From assembly GCA_017477935.1 (NCBI GenBank), contig JAFVIC010000003.1:64961-128960 (forward strand): a stretch of DNA of 64,000 bases, read 5' to 3'. The DNA comes from Akkermansia sp. (lineage in GTDB: Bacteria > Verrucomicrobiota > Verrucomicrobiia > Verrucomicrobiales > Akkermansiaceae). The notes beneath the pieces were generated by a model that had not been told where the DNA came from, did no database searches, and was given only the letters and a program-made list of their open reading frames with translations. The translations under genes were made by a program, and so were the position numbers. Of the stretch, positions 1 through 53,021 are shown piece by piece (position 1 is the stretch's first letter; every line of letters starts with the position of its first letter).

Positions 1-562
1 CCGAGCGAAAGTAACCGACATGCTGCGCGGCTCCCAACGCGCCGGGCTCCCCCCGCAGCTCACCCGCCTGAGCACTTACGGCATACTCTCCAACCTCACC
101 GGCCCCAAACTCCGCGCCCTTTTCCGCGCCCTGCAAGAGGGCGGCCTCATCTGCACCTCCGGCGGCGAAATGCCCCTCATCACCCTCACAGCCAAGGGCG
201 AAGAGGTCATGAAAGAACAAGCCCCGGCACGGCTCTCACGCCGCATTTGGGCGGCAGACGCCATCAAGCAGGTGCGGGCCTCCACCCTCAAGCGCCGCTC
301 CGAGCGCGTGCTCAATGCCATGCAGCTCGGCCGCATAGACAAGGCGCTCTTCGAGCACCTCACTGAGCTGCGCCGTGACCTCGCCGCCGAGTACCGCATG
401 CCCGTCTTCCGCGTGCTCAGCACCGAAACCCTACGCGCCATGGCCACCGTCAAACCCACCACCCTCGAAGCCGCCTCGCGCCTCAAAGGCGTCGGCCCCT
501 GGGCTAAACAACACGTCCTCCGCGCCTTCGTGGAGTTGATTTGCGATTACGAACAGGTTTGA
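1..562 (+). CDS. recQ: RecQ-family helicase, C-terminal part (RQC + HRDC); 5' end outside window
   Basis: Frame is open from the window edge. RQC-like segment (TYGILS...LITLTAKG) is followed by an HRDC domain (LFEHLTELRRDLA..MPVFRVLSTETL.AMA..KP.T....LKGVG). Confidence 0.8.
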   Translation, partial: RAKVTDMLRGSQRAGLPPQLTRLSTYGILSNLTGPKLRALFRALQEGGLICTSGGEMPLITLTAKGEEVMKEQAPARLSRRIWAADAIKQVRASTLKRRSERVLNAMQLGRIDKALFEHLTELRRDLAAEYRMPVFRVLSTETLRAMATVKPTTLEAASRLKGVGPWAKQHVLRAFVELICDYEQV

Positions 563-670
563 TTCCGGCTTCTATCCCGCCTGCAATCTGCAACTTACCG
601 AATATCGGGCAATTATACGCATTCGCCTCTATTCATTGAATGCTTTGCATAAATAAAGAGGACTATCGCA

Positions 671-1702
671 CTAACTGTCCGAACTTGTGGACTCCAACCG
701 TCGTTTCCACTGCGCGACCTCTTCAACACGGCCTGTTTCTTCCAGAAGTTCGCAAAGTACATCTATAGCCTCTATATAACCTTCGTTTGCAGCCCTTTCG
801 TAATATTTTATTGCCATATCTACGTCTGGATCTATACGTTCATTCCCATAATGGTAAATTTCTGCAAGGGACATATTTTCTCTAACCTTCACATCTTTTT
901 CACTTAAAGCCACGTCAGATTTCATTGGCATCGAGTCGCAAAAATTGTCAGATACTATTTTGAATAACTTCTTATGTATCTTTACTCGTTCTACAACGAT
1001 AGAGGGAAAAGTCGGTTGTGAACCCATTTGTTTCTGTTTTTCCTGACTTATAATTTTCTCCACATATTTTTTTTGCAATTTACAATTTATACCAAGCAAA
1101 ATACCAACGCAATACTTTCGAATATTACGGCAAAAATAAAGGCCGTCATTTACTTCAATCTCAGGCGAACTTAACTGATTAGTAAAATCCAAACGATACT
1201 CATTTTCGTACCACCAGTCTCTCCCCTTATATGCTAAAGGTGTATACAATTTATCCCACGATGGTTTTCCGGATTTGTCTTTTGACCACCCTAAATCTTG
1301 AGATCTTAAAAATACGCGATGAATATTATAAACAACCTTCAATAATCTAATATCTGAATCGAACGTCGTGTAAATAACACGGCCGTTTTTAAAAACATGA
1401 TCATACGGGATATCGAATACCAGACATACACCTTGGTGTGAATCTCCATAATTCCCCCATATAGAAAGGGAACTCATCAATCTGGAGCACGACAGTATTA
1501 AAAATGGTGTATCGCGTCTGACTGATTCGATTACGTATTTTGCCATATAATAATCAGCTGGCGACTCCGACAAATGTGTAGGCAAATATTCAGCAGGATC
1601 GTTAGTCCTGCTAATGTCCGTTAATTTAAGCTTCCCCTCCAATAAAAACTCCGTAAGATATTCAGCTTTGATGTAGTGATACAGCCTTAATATTTTACCC
1701 AT
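671..1702 (-). CDS. DUF2971-like protein with a C-terminal Sel1-like repeat
   Basis: N-terminal LYHY..., NDPAE, LSCS...SLSIWGNYGDSHQGVCLVF and YKGRDWWYENEYRL match the DUF2971 pattern (MW.HY...H.G.C..F; K...W.YE.E.R). C-terminal LAEIYHYG...DVDMAIKYYERAANEG resembles Sel1. Confidence 0.75.
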   Translation of the reverse strand: MGKILRLYHYIKAEYLTEFLLEGKLKLTDISRTNDPAEYLPTHLSESPADYYMAKYVIESVRRDTPFLILSCSRLMSSLSIWGNYGDSHQGVCLVFDIPYDHVFKNGRVIYTTFDSDIRLLKVVYNIHRVFLRSQDLGWSKDKSGKPSWDKLYTPLAYKGRDWWYENEYRLDFTNQLSSPEIEVNDGLYFCRNIRKYCVGILLGINCKLQKKYVEKIISQEKQKQMGSQPTFPSIVVERVKIHKKLFKIVSDNFCDSMPMKSDVALSEKDVKVRENMSLAEIYHYGNERIDPDVDMAIKYYERAANEGYIEAIDVLCELLEETGRVEEVAQWKRRLESTSSDS

Positions 1703-1802
1703 ATTCTATAACTTATCAATACTAATTTTTACCTACTAACCTCCTTACTTAAGCAACTTAATCGCTCATAAATACGTCAGGGTATTATATCTGCTCACCT
1801 CA

Positions 1803-2723
1803 TTATTTATTCACAATACCAAAAGGTATATGAACAGATGGCGTTATCTGGCTTGCCGGTTCAAGATGTCCCATCTGGTCATCGAAAAACAAATGAGGTC
1901 TAAAAATTTCCAATACCTTTTTCTTTTCTACCCCTCCCAAGAAAAATGCTTCTGCAGCAGTTATCCCCCATTGCCTTAATGTGGTCACTACTCGTTCGTG
2001 CGCAGGGGCATTTCGAGCTGTAACAATTGCGATGCGCAATCGAGGATTATATTCTCTGTTTCTTTCTTGCAAGCGTTGTTCCCAAGCCTGAATTTTTGCG
2101 AGTTTTTCTATCAATTTCTGCAATGGTCCTGCCATCATTGGTATTTGAGCTTTCTCGCGTTCTTCTTTCTGATACTCAGGCAATCCTTTTTCCTGATATA
2201 CAACTTCAGATGAATCATCTGCGATAACTCCGTCAAAATCAAACGCTATTCGTAACTCCCTCGTTTGAGGATCTTCGGGTGCTGATGTTGTAAGGACGCA
2301 ACCGGCTGGCAACCCCTGTTTAATAGCATTCTCAACATCAGTATGGTCGGCACTCAAAAAGAGACAACAATCAAAGGCCTCCATGTACGGATATGGATCT
2401 CGCCCTGCTGTAAAAACACCCCTCGTTATCCCCAATTCGTAATACTCACACGATTTGAAGGCCCTTAATCCGCTAATGGGTGAATTTCGCGATAGAAGAA
2501 TAACCTCTATAATTTGATTTTTTGTAAGTGAATTAAACTGTAACAATCTTTTTACGAAAGGAAAAGCGATACCCTTCTCTAATATCTTATCTCTATTATC
2601 CCATTGATATCCCATGTACTCGCGTTCTCCTTTTTCGAGAAAAATTCTATTTTCTTCTTCCAAGTCAAACAACGCTCTACTTGACACAGCAATAACTAAC
2701 TTGTTATCTGTACTAAATCCCAT
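1803..2723 (-). CDS. 5'-nucleotidase (PF06189 / cN-I-like, HAD fold)
   Basis: LVIAVSSRALFDL, LLSRNS, LRIAFDFDGV, IVTAR.APAHERV..TLR.WGI...EAFFLGG, HLFFDDQ: the characteristic motif set of this family. Confidence 0.9.
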   Translation of the reverse strand: MGFSTDNKLVIAVSSRALFDLEEENRIFLEKGEREYMGYQWDNRDKILEKGIAFPFVKRLLQFNSLTKNQIIEVILLSRNSPISGLRAFKSCEYYELGITRGVFTAGRDPYPYMEAFDCCLFLSADHTDVENAIKQGLPAGCVLTTSAPEDPQTRELRIAFDFDGVIADDSSEVVYQEKGLPEYQKEEREKAQIPMMAGPLQKLIEKLAKIQAWEQRLQERNREYNPRLRIAIVTARNAPAHERVVTTLRQWGITAAEAFFLGGVEKKKVLEIFRPHLFFDDQMGHLEPASQITPSVHIPFGIVNK

Positions 2724-2735
2724 ATTTGCTATATT

Positions 2736-3140
2736 CTAACTCAATAGTTTAGAAAGATTATAACTTTCTTGTAATAATCTTTTCACCTCACATTCCCAAA
2801 TAACAACTACCTTCCACCCTAATACTTCCAACTTTTCATAAATACACTTATCTCTGGCAACATTCTCTGCAAATTTGGCATTCCAGAAGTCAACATTTGT
2901 CGCAGGAGTACTAGCATATTTGCAACCAACGTGCCTGTGCCAAAAGCAACCGTTCACAAAGATCGCCACTTTATGCCGAGGGAGAACAATATCCGGCTTT
3001 CCTGGCAAATCATTGCGATGAAGACGAAACCTGTACCCCATAGCATGCAAAGCCCTCCGAACAAGCATCTCAGGTTTTGTATGCTTTCCCTTAATTGCCG
3101 ACATGTTACGTCGCCGCTGTTCTGGAGTATGAACATCCAT
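2736..3140 (-). CDS. vsr: Very short patch repair endonuclease
   Basis: MDVHTPEQRRRNMSAIKGKHTKPE, PGKPDIV, FVNGCFWHRH, FWNAK..NV.RD, GWKVVVIWEC. Confidence 0.95.
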   Translation of the reverse strand: MDVHTPEQRRRNMSAIKGKHTKPEMLVRRALHAMGYRFRLHRNDLPGKPDIVLPRHKVAIFVNGCFWHRHVGCKYASTPATNVDFWNAKFAENVARDKCIYEKLEVLGWKVVVIWECEVKRLLQESYNLSKLLS

Positions 3141-3199
3141 ACGTTAACACACTCTACTACAAAATATTTTTTTGTCAAGTCTTCCACTCTGCTATCCAG

Positions 3200-3736
3200 G
3201 GCAGACGCATTTGAGTTGTGTCATAAGCTCTCGAGGTACGCCCCGGCAGTGTTTTTACAGAAGTAGACGCAGGGCATGGGAGAGTGGAGGAACGAGTAGA
3301 TCGGGATTTGAGTTTTGTCACAGGGGGATGGAATTGGGAAAAACTTTCAGCTCTGGTAGTAGTGGAAAGCACGAGCTACAATAAAAAGAAGCAGACGGAA
3401 AGCACAGAAAACCGTTGCTATATAACAAATTTACCCAGAGGGAGTAGCGCAATTATCACACATGCAATTCGTAATCATTGGCAGGTTGAAAGCATGCATT
3501 GGGTGCTTGATGTAGTTTTCGGAGAAGATACTTGTCGAAAACGAGTGTACAATGCAGCAGAAAACTATTCACGAATGATGAAAGTGGTATTGAGCTTGTT
3601 GCGCAATCATAAGAAGAAGTCCGGGGGAACAAAATCGTTGGCAAGAATGAGAAAACAAGCCGCATAGAATACACGAGTACTGGAGGAAATCCTCTTTAGT
3701 GCATTCGGCGCAAAAAACGAAACAGCGGAAAGTCAA
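3200..3736 (+). mobile_element. ISAs1-family (H-repeat) transposase remnant, pseudogenised
   Basis: In-frame GHGRVEER (3272-3295), RCYITNL, IRNHWQVESMHWVLDVVFGED and NAAENYS. The N-terminus is missing. TAG at 3665 interrupts KQAA*NTRVLEEIL, where ISAs1 transposases usually have W. Confidence 0.85.
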
Positions 3737-4096
3737 TAAGAAATCCCGACATCGAAATGCGTTTGCCCTGCTCTGCTATCTGCCCAAGAATATGAAAATT
3801 GAAGAAGTCTGCCAGATATGAACCTGCAATATATAGTAAGATAGAGCGCAGCGACTACATACCCTGAGTATATTGAATTGAGATAGTCGTTTCTGATAGG
3901 GTAGAGCGTTGAACGTAAGCATACATCCTGCCACTTTAGATATGGTTCTGAAATAACCATCCGCTCATGTATCGCAAAAACCGCGACATCCTTTTCCTTC
4001 GAGTTTTTGCTGATTTTTCTGCTCCGCTAAGGTTCTTCCACCTCACTACATTCAGAGCACCTCCCAACTACGCAATAGTATCATGACAAAAATGAA

Positions 4097-4126
4097 TTGA
4101 CATCAGGGGGGATGGAATGATATAAG
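4097..4126 (+). promoter_or_regulatory. sigma70-type promoter of the MTase-REase operon
   Basis: TTGACA (4097-4102), 18 bp spacer, TATAAG (4121-4126) preceded by TGn. Confidence 0.6.
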
Positions 4127-4216
4127 TATCACATACGCCAGACGTACACCAGAGAGGGAGATAAAATACCTTCCTAAGAGCCTAAAGGAAGACGCAAGTC
4201 TCAATAATATTAGAAT

Positions 4217-5494
4217 ATGTCCAATCTCAGCCACTGTCAGCAGCTCATTTTCGATATAATTCGAAAACATCCAACCTTCTCAAACATACAAGCTAACGAG
4301 GCAATTGCTGCTGCTTCCCATTTTCTTCAAAATCCATATGGGGATATTCCTTTAATCAACAAAAAGCTGCAATCCGAGTTACTTTCTGCTATTGACGCAA
4401 CATATAATCGAGAACAAGGAATCATGGGAGCCGAAGATACTGACGAGCTTCCTAATATTGAACTTCCTTCACTTTTCGATGATGTTCCTTACCCCCCACC
4501 AGCTGAATACAATTTTACATTCATAGATTTATTTGCTGGCATTGGAGGCTTCAGACAGGCTTTCCAAAACGCTGGTGGGAAATGTGTATTCAGCTCCGAG
4601 TGGAACAAATACGCACAGAAAACATATGCTGCAAATTATGGAGAAATTCCATATGGTGATATTAGAGCTATCCCAAAAGAACAAATCCCCAGACATGATG
4701 TTCTTTGTGCGGGCTTCCCCTGCCAACCCTTCTCTCTGGCAGGAGTTTCTAAAAAGAATTCACTTGGGAGAAAGCATGGCTTTGAAGACGAGACCCAAGG
4801 TACTCTTTTCTTCGAAATTAAAGAAATCCTTCGACTGAAGAGACCAAAAGCGTTTATGCTGGAAAATGTCAAAAATCTTTTAGCTCACGATAAAGGAAAA
4901 ACATTTGAAGTAATCAGACGCTCACTTGTAGACGAGTTGGGATATGTGATCAGCTACAAAATAGTAAATGGTGCTGCTTGGGTTCCTCAGCATCGTGAGC
5001 GTATTTACATACTCGGATTTGACCCGAAACAGGTAAATATTAAATGCGATGAAATCAATGTACCTGATAAACCGGAGTCTGGCTACATATACCCCAAACT
5101 TTCCGGAATAATTAAGCGGCGTCTGGACGGTTATACACTCGGTCCTGGCACCTGGGCAACCTTGGAACGTCACAAAGCCCACCACGAAAAGGCCGGCAAC
5201 GGATTTGGTTACGGATTGCTAACGTGGCCGATGAAGGCCAACGCCGTCACCAGAACAATTTCTGCCAGATATCACAAAGATGGCGCTGAAATACTAGTTG
5301 AGCAAGAGGGTGACAGACCCCGCAAGCTCTCTGTTGAAGAAGCCATGCAACTCCAAGGCTACAACCCCGGCAGATTTGTATTCCCTGTCTCAGCTACACA
5401 GGCTTATACCCAAATAGGTAACAGCGTTGTTGTGCCAGCAATTGAGGCTTCGGCAAAGGTGATAGCAAAGATACTAAAAGAAAAATCCATATGA
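4217..5494 (+). CDS. dcm: DNA (cytosine-5)-methyltransferase, Dcm/M.EcoRII type (probably CCWGG)
   Basis: FIDLFAGIGG, GFPCQPFS, ENVKNL, QHRERIY and IGNSV motifs. Target-recognition region H..AGNGFGY...TISARYHKDGAEIL resembles Dcm/M.EcoRII. Confidence 0.93.
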   Translation: MSNLSHCQQLIFDIIRKHPTFSNIQANEAIAAASHFLQNPYGDIPLINKKLQSELLSAIDATYNREQGIMGAEDTDELPNIELPSLFDDVPYPPPAEYNFTFIDLFAGIGGFRQAFQNAGGKCVFSSEWNKYAQKTYAANYGEIPYGDIRAIPKEQIPRHDVLCAGFPCQPFSLAGVSKKNSLGRKHGFEDETQGTLFFEIKEILRLKRPKAFMLENVKNLLAHDKGKTFEVIRRSLVDELGYVISYKIVNGAAWVPQHRERIYILGFDPKQVNIKCDEINVPDKPESGYIYPKLSGIIKRRLDGYTLGPGTWATLERHKAHHEKAGNGFGYGLLTWPMKANAVTRTISARYHKDGAEILVEQEGDRPRKLSVEEAMQLQGYNPGRFVFPVSATQAYTQIGNSVVVPAIEASAKVIAKILKEKSI

Positions 5495-6723
5495 ACTGGA
5501 GCCCGGGACACCTTTCAAAATACTTCAAAGGCGTATGCGTCAAACGACTTTCTGCAACAGAAAGTGATCCGACCGTATCTCACGGTCATGAGTTTCAAGG
5601 AGTCCGTGCCTTTGTCGATTTATTTGGCAAACCAACTGACGGGGAAAAAATCGTACTCCCAGCTCGCTTTATCTATTTGAGCGATGAAGCACAACATAAT
5701 GCCAATGGCACTCTGACCTTCTACGATAGCCGATGGAACAAGCCTCACAGAGCGGCTGAATACAGGCTCTATTACACAGACAACCTCGTAACCGAGGCCA
5801 TGTACACCGATGATTGCCTACTTATAGCCAAAGATACCAATGACGAGGCCCTTGTCATTATCGCTAAGGCAGAAAGTTTGATTCTATCAGATATATTGTG
5901 GCTCTTCGGACTTACGCAAGATATTAAAGCAGGCAGATTTAATTATGTACCTGCAAAAGAACTCGATAACAGAGAACTTCCTGCTACTTTTACTTGGTTA
6001 CTGGAGTTGCTAGGTATCCCCTTACCCTCTACAACAGATTACCTTGCAGAGATGCATGAGCGCTTTGGACTTGTATTTCCCGACACTGTTACGTTCTCTG
6101 CATTTGCCAGAAGCAAGAGTAATTATCCCCACGCGCTGGATGGCAGCGCTGATGATGTACTTTATGACTGGTATAATACCGAAGAACATCTTTTTACAAT
6201 CTTTGAAGAATCAATTATTGCCAAACGAATAGAAGCAGGCTTTACGCCTAAGAGCTTTATAGAATACGCTCTGTCAGTTTTAAATCGAAGAAAGTCACGA
6301 GCCGGGCAAGGTTTGGAAAATCACCTTTCACAATTATTTGATGACCACCAGATTCGCTATTCCCGAACACCAGTAACCGAGAACAAATCAAAACCTGATT
6401 TCCTGTTCCCGGGTATTACATACTACCGCGACTCTGATTTCCCGGCGAACTTACTCCACATGCTCGGCGTAAAAACCACCTGCAAGGACCGATGGAGACA
6501 AGTTCTCGTAGAAGCAGACAGAATACCGAACAAACACCTTCTTACTCTTCAGGGGGCTATTTCTGTAAATCAAACATCAGAAATGCAACATCACAACCTC
6601 CAGCTTGTAGTACCTAAAGCCATCCATAGCTCATACACACCAGCACAGCAAAGTTGGTTGATGACAGTAGATGACTTTGTTACAAATATGCGCAACACGC
6701 AATTTGAATTCATGCTAAACTAA
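5491..6723 (+). CDS. Type IIE restriction endonuclease, EcoRII family (N effector + C catalytic domains)
   Basis: N-terminal KRLSA...RL.YY. C-terminal NRRKSRAGQGLENHL, KPDFLFPG, LGVKTTCKDRWRQVL.EADRI and HLLTLQ..IS.NQ. ATGA overlap with the MTase stop. Confidence 0.9.
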   Translation: MNWSPGHLSKYFKGVCVKRLSATESDPTVSHGHEFQGVRAFVDLFGKPTDGEKIVLPARFIYLSDEAQHNANGTLTFYDSRWNKPHRAAEYRLYYTDNLVTEAMYTDDCLLIAKDTNDEALVIIAKAESLILSDILWLFGLTQDIKAGRFNYVPAKELDNRELPATFTWLLELLGIPLPSTTDYLAEMHERFGLVFPDTVTFSAFARSKSNYPHALDGSADDVLYDWYNTEEHLFTIFEESIIAKRIEAGFTPKSFIEYALSVLNRRKSRAGQGLENHLSQLFDDHQIRYSRTPVTENKSKPDFLFPGITYYRDSDFPANLLHMLGVKTTCKDRWRQVLVEADRIPNKHLLTLQGAISVNQTSEMQHHNLQLVVPKAIHSSYTPAQQSWLMTVDDFVTNMRNTQFEFMLN

Positions 6724-6958
6724 AGAAGTATAACACCTATTTGTAACATCGTAATTTTACGCAACTTCAGAATAGCATAACGAGATTTTTCGGAATAGAG
6801 ATCACGCAATCAGGCTTCTCTGCGAATCCGAAGCTCTGGGCAAAAAGGTCTTCTATATTACCTGCGCTGCTCGTTAATTCCGTAGCTTTACTCGCCCAGC
6901 GTCGAAAGTTTACTGTTGAAGTTCTTTAGTGAGCTTTAGAAGCTATCCCCCCAAAAAA

Positions 6959-6993
6959 CTCCGGCTCGCGTTGCGGGAGCAAGCGAGCCGGAG
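6959..6993 (-). terminator. Intrinsic terminator after the Sel1 gene
   Basis: CTCCGGCTCGC/GCGAGCCGGAG stem followed on the minus strand by a T-run. Confidence 0.7.
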
Positions 6994-7025
6994 AACCCAA
7001 TAAAAACCAAAACAACAAATGCAAA

Positions 7026-7734: not shown

Positions 7735-9099
7735 TCAGGCCCGCCCCAACACCTCGCTCAGCTCAGCAGGGGCAGAAGCCACGGCATAGAGCGGCACATC
7801 GACCACGGTATAGCTGAAGCCCTGCGAGTCATTTTTACCGGGGGCAATATGGATGGTGCTGACGTTGTGCAGGCTCATGGAAACACGCAAGGCGATGGGG
7901 TGGTGATACCGCTTGCAGAAGCTGCGCAGACTTTTGGCCTGCAGGTTCAGCTCCGCCTTCACCTCGACGGGGAAGATGCGGTAATCGCTCTCGATAAGGA
8001 AATCCACCTCTGCCTGAGCGCGCTCTGCGCTCCAGTAATAGGGCGAGATTGCGCACTCCGCGCGGAGCTGCTGCTGCACATACTGCTCGGTAAGAGCGCC
8101 CTTGTACTGGCCGAAGATGCTGTTGCCCTCCAGTATGACGGACGGGGGCTGTTTGCAGGCAGCCCCCAGCAGTCCGACATCGAGAAAGAACATCTTAAAC
8201 GCGCCGTCCTTGCAGGCAGAAAGCGGCATTTCCGGCTTGCGAACACGCGGCACCATCTGCACCAGAGCCGCGTCATCCAGCCAGCGGATGGGGCCGCGCA
8301 GCTGCGGAGCGCGAACTTTCTCACCCACATCAGCATGCACAAAACGCTTATCCTCGCGGGCGAGCTGGTCGGGCACAGAGTCCCATATCTGTGTGATATA
8401 GTGAGTCTCGGCATCTGTGGCATGTTTGCTGAAATCGTTGCGATAGTCTGAAAGCAGCGCCGCCTGCACACGGCGCACGGCGTGCGGGTTGCGAGATTCC
8501 ACATATTCCTGCACGGCAGCGGGCATGCCACCCACAAAGTAGTACTGGCGCAGCAGTTCCACAAATTTATCGTGGAAAGTGTCCATCATCTCCCAATTAC
8601 GTTTGCGGATAAGCTCCACATACATGCCGAAGCCGGTGGCGTCCAGAAACTCGGTAAAGCTCATGGGGTACATATATACCCGATCCACCTTACCCACGGG
8701 AAAACCGGTACCGGTATGGACGGAAAGCCCCAGCAGTGAACCGGCCGCAATGATGTGGTGCTCCGGTACGTCTTCACAGAAATATTTGAGCGATGTGAGG
8801 GCACAGGGGCACTCCTGTATCTCATCCAGAATGATAAGAGTCTTGCCCGGCACTATCTGCACACGGCTATGCACCTGCAGGGTGTCCATCAGGCGGGGAA
8901 TATCGAAATCCTTCTCGAACGATTGGCGCACAAAATCATCGCGGTCAAAACGCACATAGACTACATTTTTATAATGTTGCCGCCCGAATTCGCGGGCAAG
9001 CCAAGTCTTGCCCACCTGACGTGCGCCAAGGAGCAGCAAGGGTTTTCGGCGTGGATTATTTTTCCACTCTACCAGCTCAGCCATGCACCATCGTTTCAT
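7735..9099 (-). CDS. AAA+ ATPase with DUF4143 / PD-(D/E)XK-like C-terminus
   Basis: GARQVGKT Walker A, LIILDEIQ Walker B, AAGSLLG, PMSFTEFL, GGMP, K.FFLDVGLL, AEVDFLI...PVEVK. Start set at MKRW (9099) because an AGGAG SD and a TTGACT-17-TACATT promoter lie upstream of it. Confidence 0.9.
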   Translation of the reverse strand: MKRWCMAELVEWKNNPRRKPLLLLGARQVGKTWLAREFGRQHYKNVVYVRFDRDDFVRQSFEKDFDIPRLMDTLQVHSRVQIVPGKTLIILDEIQECPCALTSLKYFCEDVPEHHIIAAGSLLGLSVHTGTGFPVGKVDRVYMYPMSFTEFLDATGFGMYVELIRKRNWEMMDTFHDKFVELLRQYYFVGGMPAAVQEYVESRNPHAVRRVQAALLSDYRNDFSKHATDAETHYITQIWDSVPDQLAREDKRFVHADVGEKVRAPQLRGPIRWLDDAALVQMVPRVRKPEMPLSACKDGAFKMFFLDVGLLGAACKQPPSVILEGNSIFGQYKGALTEQYVQQQLRAECAISPYYWSAERAQAEVDFLIESDYRIFPVEVKAELNLQAKSLRSFCKRYHHPIALRVSMSLHNVSTIHIAPGKNDSQGFSYTVVDVPLYAVASAPAELSEVLGRA

Positions 9100-9245
9100 T
9101 CCGGTCTCCTTCCTATCCTTCACCGCCAATGTAGCAAACATGCTCAAAAAAGTCAACATTTTTCTTTATTTTTTAAGGGCGATATTTCACAAAAAACCAA
9201 AACATCCGCAACATATTGTATTTTCTGCGTTTCTATTTTTTTATT

Positions 9246-9399
9246 TGCACTTTTACAAAGGACTTTTGGCCTTACACCTGCACTTTTACAAAGGACTTTT
9301 GACCTTACACATGCACTTTCGCAAAGGACTTTTGACCTTGCACATGCACTTTTGCAAAGGACTTTTGGCCTTACACATGCACTTTTGCAAAGGACTTTT
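9246..9399. repeat. 33-bp tandem repeat, ~4.7 copies (TGCACTTTTRCAAAGGACTTTTGRCCTTACACM)
   Basis: Units start at 9246, 9279, 9312, 9345 and 9378, with few substitutions and no spacers. Confidence 0.95.
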
Positions 9400-9415
9400 A
9401 AAATCTGCACTAGAG

Positions 9416-9452
9416 AAAAAGCCCCGCACGCCGGGTAGACGTGCGGAGCCTT
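9416..9452 (-). terminator. Intrinsic terminator of gcvTHP
   Basis: Minus strand GGCTCCGCACG...CGTGCGGGGC followed by TTTTT. Confidence 0.7.
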
Positions 9453-9475: not shown

Positions 9476-12304
<2,829 letters not shown>

Positions 12305-12409
12305 AGAATGGTATGAAGTACGAAGGTGAAAAAGCAGCAAAGCCTTGCAGGGCTCGAGCCGGGAGAATACCCCTACTCTGCGCCACATGCAAGGCTTTGT
12401 GGTGATTTC

Positions 12410-43547: not shown

Positions 43548-45395
43548 TCACAGATCCGCGAACAGGGTGCTGCATTCCGCGTGACCATTTTCAGCAGCAA
43601 GTTCAGCAGCCGTCTGCCCCAGTATATCCTGCACCGTAGTATCAATACCCGGCACAGCCAGCAATAGCCTGACCACCTCGGCATGACCGGCAGCCGCAGC
43701 AACATGCAGCGGGGTTGAGCCGTCAAAATCCCAGAGCACATTCACATTCACGGCAGGCGATTTGAGCAGGAGTTTCAGCAGCGCAACATTTCCATCTTCC
43801 GCGGCTGTGTGCAACAGAGAATAGCCGCTTTCATTGCACACATTGACATCAGCCCCGTGCGCAACGAGACTTTCAGCGCAATCGAGGTGGCCGGCCACTA
43901 CGGCAGCCTGCAGCGGAGTCCAGCCATAATCATTGCGCGACTCCAGCTCAGCGCCCCCGTTCAGCAGGCACGGCAGCAACGCCGCAGCTCCCGTGCCGGC
44001 AACAATGTGCAGGGGAGTATTGCCGACGGAATCCGCCGCTGCTACATCTACACCGGGCAAAGCCAGTGCAGAACTCAGAGCAGCGGCATCCTGCGCATGC
44101 AGCGCTTCCCACAAAGCGGATTGAGCATCGACGGGGTTCTCGACGGGGTTCTCGACGGGCTTCTCGGCAGGCTTCTCGACGGGTTTCTCGACGGGTTTCT
44201 CGACGGGTTTCTCGGCAGGCTTCTCGGCAGGCTTCTCGACGGGCTTCTCGGCAGGTTTCTCGACGGGCTGTACCTTCGGTTGAGGCGCAGGTTGCTGAGC
44301 CTGCTGCGACATTGACAAGGCACCATTCTGTTTCAGGTAGAGGGCTGCGCCTTCAACGGCATCCGTTGGCTTGGTGCGGTAGTAAACGGGCTTACCCAGG
44401 GTTTCAGCCAGTATTTTCTGCGCACCGGGCAGCAACGCAAGGTCACCGGTAATAAGCACGACCTCAGGCTTACCATACCTGAGAGCACTCATGTAGAGCG
44501 ACTTCACGGCACTAGCCATGCGCTCCAGATAGGGCACCAGAAGGCGTGCATAGTCATCCCCGGGAATCTGCACCTCGACGGAATGCCCCGCTATCAAAAA
44601 ACTCCGTACATTCAATTGCTGAGTTGAGAGAGCTCGTTGAGCATCGCGCACCGGGCACTGTTCCCGCACCTGTCGCAACAACGCAGGCCAGGCGACCCTG
44701 CCGACAGGCCGCATTCGTGCCACCTTTGCCATAATATAGTTGGCCAAATCTTCATATATCTCTTCACCGCCGAGTTCGACCTGCCCGCCCACGGCTCGGG
44801 GGTTAATCTTGCCACCGGCGGCCTCTGCAACCATGTGGGCATACTCCACACGGGCCGGAGACCAGTTAACCAACAGGGCATTCTTTTCGTACAGCGGGGC
44901 AAAACCACGGCTGCGCAACCTGTCAGCCCACACGCAATATATGGCCCCGGTATCAGTCACCAGCTCCACAGTACGAGCACCGGCCTTCAGCGCAGCCTCT
45001 CTCAGCTCCGATTGCTGATTCGGAGTGCGGGAAACAGGGCAGCACAACACTACATCAACAGCCCCCTCCGCTGCACAACCGCAACGTTCTTTGACCAAGG
45101 GGAACACATACGCCAGGAACTTCCCGAGCAAATCTGCTGCGGTATACCTTCCCATGAGTAGTTTAGCTGAACTGCCGAGTTTGCGCACAAAGGCGCGACA
45201 ATACCCGGCAGGATGTACCTCTGCCATCTTCTCAGCAGCCTCACCGAAGTGAAGCACGTCATCAGGGGTCAGGCATACAGCCGTCGGAATGCCGTATTGG
45301 TATTTACCGAGCCTGACAAGCTCCGATTTTTCACCGGCAATGACGGCGGCATAAGTCTCTGCAGCTCCCGGATCGATGACGAGTTTGATTGACAT
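43548..45395 (-). CDS. Degenerate Hsp70-like domain + PxEK linker + ankyrin repeats (paralog of the adjacent gene)
   Basis: LVIDPG, IPTAV...LHFGEAA, VVLCCP...[25 protein letters not shown]. Ankyrins GNTPLH, GWTPLQ, GYSLLH, GSTPLH. Confidence 0.8.
44127..44267 (-). repeat. 12-bp coding tandem repeat encoding P(V/A)E(K/N) x11 + PVD
   Basis: Read directly in DNA (TTCTCGACGGG(T/C) / TTCTCGGCAGG(T/C) on the plus strand) and in the translation. Confidence 0.95.
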
Positions 45396-45535
45396 AACTA
45401 CTGTATATAATAATTGACTGAGAACGTGCGGAACAACACGAGGGTGCACACCTGTATCGACCCACTCGTGAATATATACCACGCCCGGCGGGGGGATGTC
45501 AATCCCATTCCCGAGTCAATCAGATATTCAACAAC

Positions 45536-51164: not shown

Positions 51165-51674
51165 TCAGCGCGCAGCGAATTCTTGAGCTAACTCTACATA
51201 ACCGAGCGCATGGCGGTAGTTTTCCGCCTCCACATCCGGGGAAAGTTGTTTTACAACTTTGGCAGGAGCCCCCAACACAAGACTATGCGGAGGAATGATG
51301 GTTCCCTTGGTCACCAGAGCATGCGCCCCGACAATGGAGCCATGCCCCACCACAGCACCATCAAGCACAACTGCCCCCATGCCGATGAGGCATTTATCCT
51401 CCACCGTACAGGCATGCAGTGTTACACTGTGCCCCACAGTCACATATTCACCCAAGTGGCAGCCCAGCTCATAGTCTACATGCAGGCAGCAGTTATCCTG
51501 CACATTGCTGCCACGCCCGATGGTGATGGGTGCCACATCGCCGCGCACGGTAGCATTGTACCATACGGAAGCCCCCTCGCCCACGCTCACATTGCCGATG
51601 ATATCCGCACTCGCGGCAATGAAAGCCGGACTGTCCAACTGCGGTTCCTTCCCCCTGAATTGCTCAATAGCCAT
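51165..51674 (-). CDS. Gamma carbonic anhydrase family (YrdA-like) hexapeptide protein
   Basis: AFIAASADIIGNV.VG..ASVWY...VRGD, IG..SNVQDN..LH, VTVGH.V.LH.C, IGMGAVVLD. Confidence 0.93.
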   Translation of the reverse strand: MAIEQFRGKEPQLDSPAFIAASADIIGNVSVGEGASVWYNATVRGDVAPITIGRGSNVQDNCCLHVDYELGCHLGEYVTVGHSVTLHACTVEDKCLIGMGAVVLDGAVVGHGSIVGAHALVTKGTIIPPHSLVLGAPAKVVKQLSPDVEAENYRHALGYVELAQEFAAR

Positions 51675-51680
51675 ACGCGG

Positions 51681-51709
51681 AGTATAGCGCAACAGCTCCC
51701 TGTTGGCAA
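51681..51709 (-). promoter_or_regulatory. Gamma-CA promoter, leaderless-type
   Basis: TTGCCA-17bp-TATACT on the minus strand, with ATG 6 nt after the -10. Confidence 0.7.
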
Positions 51710-51717
51710 GACAATGA

Positions 51718-51829
51718 ATTTACAATTTACGATTTACGATTTACGATTTACGATTTACGATTTACGATTTACGATTTACGATTTACGATTTACGATTTAC
51801 GATTTACGATTTACGATTTGTGATTTTTC
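51718..51829. repeat. Heptanucleotide microsatellite (ATTTACG)13 with degenerate flanking units
   Basis: 13 perfect units at 51725-51815, flanked by ATTTACA, ATTTGTG and ATTTTTC. Confidence 0.97.
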
Positions 51830-51962
51830 GGCATTCATCGCAGAGGCGCACCCCGACACAGCCATAAACGAAGCGGAGGCACCAGCCAACCGAACAAATT
51901 GTAAATTATGCATGCTTTGCACTTGCAATTCATGCACATATATGATAGCATGCCGCCCGTTC

Positions 51963-53021
51963 ATGATAACTGACCACCAGTCACTGACCGAATGGAAGAT
52001 TCGCGCGATGGCACAGCCCCGAGGGCGCACCGTGCTGGATCTGGAGGCCGACAGCATGCACCGCCACCACGAGAAGCTCTGTCTCATTCAATATGCAGAC
52101 GAAGAAGGGGTGACCATCATCGACCCTCTCGCTATCGAAGATTTGCGACTCTTCGCCATCTGGATGGAAGAGGCCGATGTCTGGATGCACGGCGCCGACT
52201 ACGACATGAACCTGCTGCAGACAGCCTTCGGGACCCTGCCCCACCTCATTCTCGACACTCAAATAGCCGCGCGCCTGCTGGGGTTCCGCCAGTTCGGCCT
52301 CGCCGCCTTGGTAGAGCACTTCTTCAACGTAACACTCAGCAAGAAAAACCAGAAAGCTGACTGGGGGCTGCGCCCCATGAGCGATGAAATGAAAGAGTAC
52401 GCCCAGGGCGATGTGAAGTACATGCTCGCTATGGCTGACATACTTGTGGAGCGACTGAAAAAAGCCGGGCGTTACGACTGGTTTATCGAGAGTTGTGAGC
52501 TGCAGATGAAAAAAGGCCGTGAGCGTCACCAGGCCGGTAGTGTTGACCCCTGGCGTATCAAGGGCAGCGGCAACCTCGAAGCCCGCGGTCTGGCCGCCCT
52601 GCGCGAACTGTGGAACTGGCGTAACGATGAGGCCGCCCTGTGGGACCGCCCGGCCTTCATGGTATGCTCGAATGATGAGCTTACACGCTGGAGCTACGCC
52701 CTGCAGGAGTTCCGCAGTGTTTACCCACCGCACCATTTCCATGCCCACCGCGCTGCAAGATTCCGCAAAGCAGTGGAGCGTTTCCAGCTACTCGACGAGA
52801 GCGACTACCCCCAGCCGCCCAAGCGCACCCGCCACGAAACCGACCCCGAGTTCGATGAGCGCCTGGAGCACTGGCAGAAACGCCGCAACACCATCGCCGA
52901 AACCCTCGGCATGGAACCCTGCATCATCGCCACGCGCAGCCAGCTTGAATCCATCGCCGCAGACTACGAGCACGGCATGGCCAAACTCATGAACTGGCAG
53001 CGCCGACTACTGCAAAACTGA
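51963..53021 (+). CDS. rnd: Ribonuclease D (3'-5' exonuclease + HRDC)
   Basis: LDLEAD.MH....KLCLIQ, HGADYD, LDTQIAARLLG, GLAALVE....LSK..QKADW..RP, YAQGDV. HRDC LRELW.WR..EA...DRP. Start is 51963 or 51942. Confidence 0.92.
   Translation: MITDHQSLTEWKIRAMAQPRGRTVLDLEADSMHRHHEKLCLIQYADEEGVTIIDPLAIEDLRLFAIWMEEADVWMHGADYDMNLLQTAFGTLPHLILDTQIAARLLGFRQFGLAALVEHFFNVTLSKKNQKADWGLRPMSDEMKEYAQGDVKYMLAMADILVERLKKAGRYDWFIESCELQMKKGRERHQAGSVDPWRIKGSGNLEARGLAALRELWNWRNDEAALWDRPAFMVCSNDELTRWSYALQEFRSVYPPHHFHAHRAARFRKAVERFQLLDESDYPQPPKRTRHETDPEFDERLEHWQKRRNTIAETLGMEPCIIATRSQLESIAADYEHGMAKLMNWQRRLLQN

Follow-up and report, generated by a model that had tools for sequence, protein, structure and literature searches.

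What purpose does a run of near-identical 33-bp direct repeats serve in front of a single gene, and which protein would recognize them? The question was raised by a 64,000-nt stretch of an Akkermansia sp. contig (the window), in which such an array lies on the DNA that separates the gcvP terminator from the promoter of an AAA_14/DUF4143 gene. The minus strand carries the gene and its promoter, and it also gives the array its functional orientation. A preliminary description had counted about 4.7 near-identical units and had proposed that they form a phased platform for the ATPase itself, serving autoregulation or self-marking, or a VNTR tuning its expression. The count was borne out by Tandem Repeats Finder (period 33, 4.7 copies, 93% matches, 0 indels, score 259), and the array was by far the strongest non-coding array of the 64-kb window. 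In pattern searches, the 33-mer consensus with at most 3 mismatches gave 4 matches versus 0.00 expected from shuffles, and a 19-nt core gave 5 versus 0.05. The repeat unit consisted of a 22-nt asymmetric box and an 11-nt linker, the box reading AAAAGTCCTTTG[C/T]AAAA[G/A]TGCA on the gene strand. All five boxes were direct and lay on a single side of the gene, as in nearly all relatives. The decayed edge of the array came directly after the terminator of gcvP, the upstream gene (9476-12388, Pfam GDC-P), and this terminator formed the upstream boundary of the module. The coordinates are collected in the table.

Table. Features of the array, its promoter, and the adjoining gene in the window.
Feature	Coordinates	Strand	Basis
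Gene for a 454-aa protein, AAA_14/DUF4143	7735..9099	-	Pfam, PADLOC, invariant residues, AlphaFold2, Foldseek, RNA contigs
Shine-Dalgarno AGGAGA, 5 nt before ATG	9105..9110	-	sequence
Promoter TTGACT-17-TACATT (-35 at 9151-9156, -10 at 9128-9133, 17-nt spacer with TGn)	9128..9156	-	consensus scan
AT-rich spacer, 89 nt, 26% G+C, last box to -35	9157..9245	-	sequence, measured distances
Array of five direct 33-bp units	9246..9399	-	Tandem Repeats Finder, pattern searches versus shuffles, in-register listing, box/linker conservation
Boxes 1-5 (+ strand coordinates)	9246-9267, 9279-9300, 9312-9333, 9345-9366, 9378-9399		in-register listing
Decayed array edge, 3' end remnant AGTGCA of a sixth box at 9406-9411	9400..9411	-	read from sequence
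gcvP terminator, hairpin and T-run	9418..9452	-	inverted repeat, sequence

One element of the preliminary description did not stand. The quasi-palindrome that it had stressed, TTTGCAAA, was considered as a dimer site and rejected, since it was perfect in only 2 of the 5 boxes and was not conserved. Its central C/T fell on a position of the box that varies freely, as does one other, and the palindrome was missing from the boxes of paralogues. The palindrome is incidental, and the conserved feature is the asymmetric 22-nt box repeated in one orientation.

The promoter named in the preliminary description was recovered as a promoter-like site by a consensus scan, and TTGAC-N17-(TG)nTAnnnT was conserved in 14 related loci. 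ATG at 9099, and not 9159 of the ORF finder, was assigned as the start codon because homologues align from MKRW. The AT-rich tract was likewise found where it had been placed, between the array and the promoter, and it contains a clade-conserved degenerate half-box, GAAAATACAA. A spacer length of 87-90 nt was kept in the gcvP-linked clade, with 18-20 nt in five other lineages, and in six PVC lineages the array ended 7-20 nt before the -35 element. The array overlapped or followed the core promoter in Vibrio (L030), Acinetobacter (L031), L047/L048, and S. copri RS14125, and likewise in a 390-aa subfamily (L075/L076); these are typical operator positions for repression. A promoter held in 33-bp register with the array was considered and rejected, as distances of 7, 18-20, 74-78, and 87-90 nt gave no fixed phase. 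Across clades, the last box and the -35 element were not separated by multiples of the helical repeat.

The identity of the gene as AAA-DUF4143 was upheld by Pfam matches to AAA_14 (1e-27, 97 bits, cut-off 27) and DUF4143 (3e-30, 105 bits, cut-off 28). The domain order was an AAA+ ATPase, a helical lid, a winged helix (about residues 229-305), and a PD-(D/E)XK nuclease, with Walker A GARQVGKT, Walker B ILDEIQ, and predicted nuclease residues D366 and E379-x-K381. G25-x4-GKT32, D92-E93, D366, and E379-x-K381 were invariant in 57 homologues. Variability in the winged-helix segment was modestly higher than in the cores of the ATPase and the nuclease, a weak signal as a test of specificity determinants. 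The AlphaFold2 model of the protein had a pLDDT of 92. Its best PDB match in Foldseek was the archaeal Walker ATPase PABY2304 (2qen, E 4e-8), and further fold matches were ORC/Cdc6 proteins, including Orc1/Cdc6 on origin DNA (2qby), and the STAND proteins Avs3 and MalT (8bob). The ORC/Cdc6 chains, 2qby among them, matched with E about 5e-5 over about 390 columns and TM-scores of 0.27-0.33, and these low scores place the similarity at the level of architecture only. The predicted structure is an ORC/Cdc6-like AAA+ domain joined to a winged helix and a PD-(D/E)XK nuclease.

An exact-sequence look-up of the window protein gave no match. The protein matched the PADLOC candidate PDC-S01 (PDLC04786) over residues 1-442 with an E value of 8.8e-164, and the gene adjoins an EcoRII/Dcm restriction-modification island (EcoRII-C/Dcm). 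PDC-S01 is reported to rank fourth in abundance among candidate defence families of prokaryotes and is described as experimentally untested; the literature searched covers its domain architecture and prevalence (PMC12988326; bioRxiv 10.1101/2024.01.29.577857; PMC3424549), with about 39,000 loci counted (PMC12988326).

Within Akkermansia, the same box was found 5' of the orthologue with exact 33-bp spacing and in 1-8 copies (loci within L001-L013 and L018). The order gcvP-array-gene was chromosomal and syntenic in several Akkermansia species, and the genomic contexts numbered at least four: following gcvP, following an unrelated gene (L008/L009), following a PEP-CTERM-type gene (L010), and one other (L005). 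No other genes were conserved alongside the array and the orthologue at the Akkermansia loci. Box identity between species was 91%, with 17 of 22 positions invariant, and linker identity was 56%, with length always 11. Linkers were more alike within an array than between species, and therefore evolved in concert by duplication. Comparison of these sequences showed an array that is under selection.

Copy number differed between close relatives, with 5 boxes in the window versus at least 6 at L018, whose protein is 99% identical. An identical 5-unit allele occurred in four metagenomes; other metagenome assemblies break inside the array. Because copy number varies among strains and species, the VNTR aspect of the preliminary description holds too, with tuning of expression as its putative outcome. 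As anecdotal observations, L013, the only locus whose gene is broken, had a single box, and a truncated gene copy of S. copri had none.

Variable copy number and the concerted evolution of linkers would also be expected of a neutral slippage minisatellite without function. A small RNA, or a peptide repeat of 11 residues, as the product of the array would be suggested by the divisibility of 33 by 3, by some open frames, and by a fold z-score of about -2.3. However, independent lineages carried unrelated box sequences, yet the same period and position, and the neutral-minisatellite reading already fails this comparative test. The box was invariant at all three codon positions whereas the linkers varied, no frame was consistently open, and six arrays had stops in all six frames. 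Folding gave no defined structure (MFE frequency 0.0004), and an Rfam search returned sub-threshold chance matches only. Among the contigs of a low-depth metatranscriptome, low-level RNA contigs covered 7841-9011 and none lay over the array. The coding and small-RNA explanation was rejected on frames, structure, and RNA contigs, and a neutral, coding, or RNA origin of the repeat as a whole is scarcely credible.

The array extended well beyond Akkermansia. As the preliminary description had anticipated for homologous genes, 30 of 40 non-redundant relatives (<90% identity, scored by the strongest 20-mer self-offset at 31-34 or 63-67 bp) had a 32/33-bp array at the promoter, and a clear one was missing in the other 10. 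These relatives covered seven phyla (Verrucomicrobiota, Lentisphaerota, Bacteroidota, Pseudomonadota, Fusobacteriota, Chlamydiota, and Bacillota), and the period was 32 in a third of lineages. Family members were also found on plasmids and predicted viral contigs. In control upstream regions, at most 1 of ~110 gave a signal; across 118 such regions, signal was confined to those sharing the AAA intergenic region or belonging to a second AAA_14/DUF4143 gene. Genome-wide scattering of the repeat, which would have spoken against a link to this gene, was not seen: the 64-kb window held one array and no box elsewhere, and no window box lay away from the gene in any fetched locus. A metagenome collection yielded one further array, again before the gene, and two single chance matches inside unrelated ORFs. 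A scan of viral contigs found no window box, and there was therefore no sign of phage-target mimicry by the box.

The sequence of the box changed with the protein clade while the spacing stayed constant, which is the co-variation that the preliminary description had called for. Paralogues at 53-70% identity kept the 33-bp spacing and had different boxes. The proteins at L011 (67% identity) and L012 (60%) each had their own box, AAAGTCGTTCGAATTTTGT and AAAGTCCTTTGTCTTTTGC respectively, three times with a 33-bp period, and each of L019 (64%), L021 (57%), L022 (Lentisphaeria, 53%), and L024 (55%) had its own box with a 33-bp period. The box of one locus was recognisable upstream of the other in 77% of pairs at 75% or more protein identity, in 12% at 60-75%, and in 0-3% below. 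In a Mantel test, the observed correlation was reached in 1 of 2000 permutations. Paralogues of the same genome also had different boxes, as in L008 versus L011 (MAG SUVL01), the two genes in L007, and RS14040 versus RS14125 on the S. copri DSM 18205 plasmid.

This behaviour makes it very unlikely that the boxes are bound by some other protein of the host, for instance a nucleoid protein or a global regulator, in control of the gene. Nothing direct speaks for such a factor; a motif of an A-tract with TGTG/TGCA (AAAA[AG]TGTG) recurred in many lineages and could reflect a shared structural preference. Against it, the array travels with the gene over seven phyla, plasmids, predicted viral contigs, and unrelated contexts, is paralogue-specific within one genome, and was seen at other promoters in at most 1 of ~110 controls and nowhere else in the 64-kb window.

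We consider it probable, at roughly 0.6, that the protein encoded immediately downstream has its cognate DNA site in the array, and that the gene regulates itself. Its sites lie at its own promoter and co-vary with the putative regulator. The phased platform for the ATPase and the autoregulation put forward in the preliminary description thus gain support from linkage, co-variation, and spacing, with binding as the putative step. We infer that this protein is the binder, with one protomer recognising each 22-nt asymmetric box through an AAA+/winged-helix/PD-(D/E)XK chain, much as an Orc1/Cdc6 monomer covers about 30 bp with its AAA+ domain and winged helix. A spacing of exactly 33 bp, three helical turns, would place consecutive protomers head to tail along the same face of the helix, where neighbours may touch via their AAA+ domains and bind cooperatively. 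The complex at its own promoter would then set the expression level of a potentially dangerous ATPase-nuclease. The sign of regulation would most likely be autorepression with nucleotide- or signal-dependent release, and gain or loss of units by slippage or unequal recombination would change the number of sites and shift the set-point. Several considerations weigh on this operator reading. Among them are the variable distance between array and -35 element, the 10 of 40 relatives in which a clear array was missing, the modest extent of the winged-helix variability, and the low depth of the contigs on which the apparent lack of transcription over the array is based. The co-variation could in principle reflect any factor encoded by the cassette, although the cassette contains no second gene. 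Moreover, the window-clade array, 89 nt upstream of the -35 element, speaks against simple occlusion and is compatible with activation or looping.

The same distance would also suit a protein that binds the array for a chief purpose other than transcription, either as an assembly or parking platform (self-marking) or as a recombination substrate that moves the cassette. As a platform, the array would nucleate or sequester an ATPase-nuclease oligomer whose nuclease stays inactive until titrated by foreign DNA. Oligomerisation commonly activates STAND/AAA+ defence nucleases, and Avs3 was among the fold matches. Near-identical arrays flanked the gene on both sides at L010 (93% over 119 bp) and L011 (99% over 87 bp), where the homology began at the first box and stopped at the last, and direct repeats of 50-250 bp flanked other cassettes (L012, L025, L042). 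The occurrence of the same orthologue and array in four or more contexts would also fit mobility. However, most loci had an upstream array only, always at the promoter. The flanking repeats differed in kind, with arrays at two loci and unrelated sequence at three others, and they fit ordinary single-crossover insertion no less than a dedicated mechanism. No empty site or solo array was found, and the plasmid collection held no empty insertion site for the Glaesserella cassette. Such a purpose is possible but unlikely. Quite unlikely, in our judgement, is a self-contained, self-addressing cassette of a new kind, in which an ORC-like ATPase-nuclease would polymerise head to tail on a private 33-bp-phased address serving as both licensed assembly site and mobility sequence. 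If this were true, the address would restrain the nuclease or mark self, the cassette would duplicate or move through it, and rapid turnover of the boxes would insulate co-resident paralogues.

The ORC-like fold and the direct repeats also suggest an iteron-type replication origin of a small mobile replicon with the ATPase as its initiator. A 22-nt box every 33 bp, five times over, agrees with the helix-phased direct repeats of about 17-22 bp of iteron-type origins; the repeats adjoin a tract of 26% G+C, the fold is similar to that of Orc1/Cdc6 on its origin boxes (2qby), and plasmids and predicted viral contigs carry family members. The neighbouring gene, however, is AAA_14/DUF4143 and not Rep, and the locus is chromosomal and syntenic after gcvP across several Akkermansia species. 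In most lineages there is no AT-rich tract, and the array abuts or overlaps the promoter. Several paralogues share one replicon, and the annotated replication initiator of the S. copri plasmid lies elsewhere. The boxes are unidirectional and one-sided, unlike ORB pairs around an unwinding element, and we regard an origin as highly improbable.

The archaeal Orc1/Cdc6-ORB system nevertheless resembles the operator reading in several respects. It shares the predicted architecture of AAA+ domain, lid, and winged helix, has repeated boxes of about 20-35 bp by its own gene, and lets one monomer cover its stretch of DNA through two domains. It differs in that inverted boxes flank an unwinding element, whereas here tandem boxes with a fixed 33-bp spacing lie at the promoter on one side of the gene, the protein has a C-terminal PD-(D/E)XK nuclease, and the module occupies unremarkable sites on chromosomes or plasmids, where one replicon often harbours several paralogues. 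In plasmid iterons with their Rep proteins (RepA, pi, TrfA), parC-ParR of R1, and sopC-SopB of F, the product of the adjacent gene binds phased direct repeats cooperatively. These arrays double as autoregulation operators, their specificity diverges (incompatibility groups), and their repeat copy number matters. By comparison, an AAA+ ATPase-nuclease takes the place of the winged-helix Rep or ribbon-helix-helix/HTH adaptor as the putative binder here, the repeats recur every 33 (or 32) bp where those systems use 11, 22, or 43, and the module is a single gene in defence-island contexts without replication or partition partner genes. MalT, a STAND ATPase, forms an NTP-dependent oligomer on asymmetric direct-repeat boxes just upstream of the -35 element at mal promoters, and DnaA controls its own gene by way of DnaA boxes in the dnaA promoter. 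Both serve regulons or an origin, have no nuclease, and use boxes of 9-10 bp with irregular spacing, whereas the protein considered here has no detectable target beyond its own promoter.

The window protein is a member of PDC-S01 (AAA_14 and DUF4143, COG1373), and the literature searched described no cis-element for PDC-S01 or AAA_14-DUF4143. The array as a cognate site has no published description that we found, and it would add to the family a cis-element absent from its descriptions. A conserved, clade-specific DNA address beside each gene would be the first concrete, testable molecular property for PDC-S01. It predicts for each protein a sequence-specific DNA target, one protomer per three helical turns, and a regulatory circuit, and the proteins with their boxes would make up a naturally occurring set of orthogonal protein-operator pairs. 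In genome annotation, an array of 32/33-bp period may serve as a signature that helps to place the start codons and promoters of these genes correctly. A further question that the address raises is whether the family deserves its defence label or consists of autoregulated DNA-scanning nucleases or selfish cassettes.

In the window, which comes from a species of Akkermansia, the minus strand was the biologically relevant strand for both the array and the ATPase gene. Tandem Repeats Finder detected a strong non-coding array over the five boxes (period 33, 4.7 copies, 93% identity, no indels). Within the 64-kb window the consensus unit occurred 4 times and its 19-nt core 5 times, compared to 0.00 and 0.05 expected from shuffles. 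On the gene strand the unit consisted of the box, AAAAGTCCTTTG[C/T]AAAA[G/A]TGCA, followed by 11 nt (e.g. TGTGTAAGGCC). The preliminary description had noted a quasi-palindrome in the unit. The TTTGCAAA palindrome was perfect in only 2 of 5 boxes and its central base was one of the two freely varying box positions; the box is therefore best viewed as asymmetric and present in a single orientation. Downstream of the ATPase gene, a low-G+C stretch at 500-7000 (35-47%, in a genome of roughly 60%) was a probable horizontally acquired defence island adjoining the gene.

Features of the window and of related loci (% identity, protein)
Locus	Feature	Position or size	Strand	Remark
Window	gcvP (Pfam GDC-P)	9476-12388	minus	upstream neighbour of array
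Window	gcvP terminator, hairpin and T-run	9418-9452	minus	at gcvP end
Window	Five boxes	9246-9399	minus	between gcvP terminator and spacer
Window	Spacer	89 nt	minus	after boxes; 26% G+C
Window	Promoter-like site TTGACT-17-TACATT	9156..9128	minus	after spacer
Window	Shine-Dalgarno AGGAGA		minus	between promoter-like site and ATG
Window	AAA_14/DUF4143 protein, 454 aa	ATG at 9099	minus	
Window	EcoRII-C (EcoRII-type) endonuclease gene	5491-6723		low-G+C island
Window	Dcm-type C5 methylase	4217-5494		low-G+C island; overlaps endonuclease gene
Window	PF06189 5'-nucleotidase	1803-2723		low-G+C island
Window	DUF2971/Sel1 protein	671-1702		low-G+C island
L011	Box AAAGTCGTTCGAATTTTGT	three copies		67% identity
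L012	Box AAAGTCCTTTGTCTTTTGC	three copies		60% identity
L019	Box AAAGTTCCTTTGCATTTTGCC	three copies		64% identity
L021	Box TTTATCTTTGCTTTAGGTGCA	three copies		57% identity
L022	Box AAAAAGTCRTTGCCAAAAYGTGG			53% identity; Lentisphaeria genome
L024	Box AAAAGTCCTCAAGAAAATGTGG	four copies		55% identity
L012	Cassette direct repeats	2349-2776 vs 4467-4733		
L025	Cassette direct repeats	1249-1315 vs 2822-2888		
L042	Cassette direct repeats	about 300 nt before the ATG vs 165 nt past the stop		

Away from the gene, the box was found neither in the window (one array in 64 kb), nor in any fetched Akkermansia locus, nor in viral contigs. The metagenome scan revealed one more array, again before the gene, and two single matches within unrelated coding sequences, which is about the chance level for a pattern with 19 specified bases. 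As far as tested in these four sets, the box was not scattered irrespective of the gene. Two other repeats were noted in the window. A near-perfect heptanucleotide microsatellite at 51718-51819 (ATTTACG x 14.6, 98% identity), just past the start of minus-strand ORF 51165-51692 and inside plus-strand ORF 51210-53021, looks like a slippage-prone contingency tract. The 12-bp repeat TCGACGGGCTTC at 44128-44269 (11.8 copies; 3 copies when scored with a 48-bp unit) was inside the long minus-strand ORF 43548-45482 and presumably encodes a tetrapeptide repeat.

Of the 15 loci that the genome-collection scan gave, 13 belonged to Akkermansia or Akkermansiaceae. In close relatives the same box occurred 1 to 8 times upstream of the orthologue, always spaced by exactly 33 bp. 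The identical 5-unit allele was present in four gut metagenomes, and a metagenome contig whose protein was 99% identical carried at least 6 units versus 5 in the window. Orthologue and array followed gcvP in six loci (window, L001, L002, L003, L007, and L013) and unrelated genes in L008/L009, L010, and L005, with no co-conserved neighbour among the Akkermansia loci compared. That the array is an origin of replication is unlikely, given the chromosomal synteny of the locus, the unidirectional and one-sided boxes, and the several paralogues per replicon. Between species the box was 91% identical (17 of 22 positions invariant) and the linker 56%, with linker length constant; judged from these comparisons, the pattern marks selection acting at the DNA level, on the site and its spacing, and differs from that of a neutral minisatellite. 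Linker identity was higher within arrays than between species, which together with the gain and loss of units showed ongoing duplication and contraction. As a group, a neutral VNTR, a peptide repeat, and a small RNA were excluded by the conservation of period and position across lineages, box invariance at all codon positions, a period of 32 in a third of lineages, inconsistent reading frames, and the absence of an Rfam match and of a stable fold. In an Akkermansia MAG (L013:3001-3894) the orthologue after gcvP was broken, with an internal deletion and the DUF4143 part alone annotated, and the array had shrunk to a single box. Upstream of the array in L005 (611-900) and L006 (871-1160), short motifs of the form AATTTCGCT / GTGAAATC were numerous and occurred in both orientations.

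Six distant relatives (L011, L012, L019, L021, L022, and L024) carried other boxes, all with a period of 33 bp, in arrays directly preceding a conserved TTGAC-N17-TGnTAnnnT promoter. L008 and L011, paralogues from one metagenome-assembled genome, had two different boxes. When pairs of loci were compared, the box of one could be recognised upstream of the other in 77% of those with protein identity >=75%, in 12% of those at 60-75%, and in practically no pair of lower identity. The observed correlation was reached in only 1 of 2000 Mantel permutations. Other phyla were sampled from plasmids (tblastn) and predicted viral contigs. Arrays with a period of 32 or 33 bp lay before the gene in Glaesserella, Parabacteroides/Bacteroides, Segatella, Fusobacterium, Vibrio, Acinetobacter, Criblamydia, and a number of Firmicutes-type contigs. 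A related motif, AAAA[A/G]TGTG, formed the end of many of these boxes. With proteins clustered at 90% identity and an array called at a best 20-mer self-offset of 31-34 or 63-67 bp with >=15/20 matches, 30 of 40 representatives gave a 32/33-bp-type signal. As controls, 118 regions upstream of the remaining ORFs of these sequences were scored, and eight passed the threshold; seven of the eight either lay in the intergenic region of the AAA gene itself or belonged to a second AAA_14/DUF4143 gene (L007 4746-5924), and the eighth scored 15, giving a control rate of at most 1 of about 110. The preliminary description had proposed to test whether tandem repeats upstream of the homologues co-vary with the protein clade and to compare copy number across strains; in our results such repeats were present, co-varied with the clade, and differed in copy number. 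Binding of the boxes by a different host factor is unlikely, in view of the horizontal spread across phyla and the paralogue-specific boxes.

Other geometries were also observed. The plasmid of Segatella copri DSM 18205 (NZ_CP085933.1, L066-L069) carried four family copies: RS14040 had AAAAGTCCCTCATAAAAGTGTG x3 abutting the promoter, RS14125 had CGTCAAAACGTGAGAAATAG x3 between promoter and ATG, and a truncated copy had no array. RS14575 (at 144505) was without a 33-bp array; upstream of it were clusters of the 9-nt motif GGAGTTAAG in inverted arrangement, suggesting that the operator architecture differs in this branch. Promoters of a ~390-aa family branch also carried repeated boxes of differing geometry; for example, those of L075 and L076 had periods of 22-23 bp and overlapped -35 and -10, and L070 and L073/L074 had palindromes. 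L007 contained a second, canonical 392-aa AAA_14/DUF4143 gene (4746-5924, minus strand) 370 nt downstream of the first, which had two boxes of its own, TTGCACATAATCGGCAGGAA, spaced by 33 bp (about 6016-6064). A 39-bp palindromic element, TGCAAATTTAAGATTCAAT..TTAAATTTGCA, occurred twice, once in the leader of this second gene and once past its stop codon (5939-5977, 4656-4694). The gene was adjoined by a restriction-type helicase gene and by a fragment (6105-6365) from the C-terminal part of a third member of the family.

The 454-aa protein was assigned to PDC-S01 by PADLOC (E 9e-164), and Walker A, Walker B, and the D...E-x-K nuclease residues were invariant in 57 homologues. It had no sequence match in the PDB. 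AlphaFold2 with the 57-homologue alignment gave a confident model (pLDDT 92, pTM 0.91) comprising, in order, an AAA+ core, a helical lid, a helix-turn-helix with beta-hairpin wing (~229-305), and a nuclease domain. The best Foldseek match was the Pyrococcus Walker ATPase PABY2304 (2qen), followed by many ORC/Cdc6 chains, including Orc1/Cdc6 on origin DNA (2qby), and by the STAND proteins Avs3, NLRs, and MalT. These matches indicated a protein with the predicted parts for bipartite recognition of a ~22-bp site and for oligomerisation. The winged-helix segment was somewhat less conserved (0.46-0.49) than the enzymatic cores (0.66 and 0.60), which agrees with, without proving, a role as specificity determinant.

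We propose that each box would be bound by one protomer, and that the exact three-turn spacing would place protomers on one helix face, allowing AAA+ contacts and cooperative binding. The complex would control the ATPase gene's own promoter, and unit duplication or contraction would tune the number of sites. We lean towards repression, since boxes overlapped or followed the core promoter in Vibrio, Acinetobacter, L047/L048, S. copri RS14125, and L075/L076. The last box ended 18-20 nt before -35 in five PVC lineages, so that -35 would be covered by one additional protomer. For the clade of the window, the distance from array to -35 was 87-90 nt, with a conserved degenerate half-box between, an arrangement that would need spreading, looping, or activation. 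Alternatively, the bound array may be non-regulatory, serving as an assembly platform, in self-marking, or in cassette mobility. Consistent with this, the gene was bracketed by two near-identical arrays in the same orientation, linkers included, in L010 (2809-2927 and 4391-4509, 93% identity) and L011 (2830-2916 and 4374-4460, 99%), with homology limits exactly at the boxes and no promoter or gene after the second array. In L011 an 82-bp piece of a neighbouring reverse-strand gene was also duplicated in non-collinear order (2717-2798 / 4498-4579). Three other array-promoter-gene cassettes (L012, L025, and L042) had direct repeats of 50-250 bp on either side, unrelated in sequence, which could reflect insertion of circular cassettes by a single crossover (Campbell-type); a search of the plasmid collection revealed no empty insertion site.

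The full-text literature searched on the DUF4143/PDC-S01 family covered domain classification, prevalence surveys, and a guilt-by-embedding paper nominating candidates, and mentioned no cis-element or DNA binding; on this literature, the module of array and ATPase-nuclease is undescribed. It resembles iterons/Rep, ORB/Orc1, parC/ParR, and MalT boxes in having phased direct repeats by the gene of an oligomerising DNA-binding ATPase. It differs from them in its partner, an ATPase-nuclease from a family that is very abundant and uncharacterised, in the conservation of the 32/33-bp period between phyla, and in the rapid turnover of the boxes.
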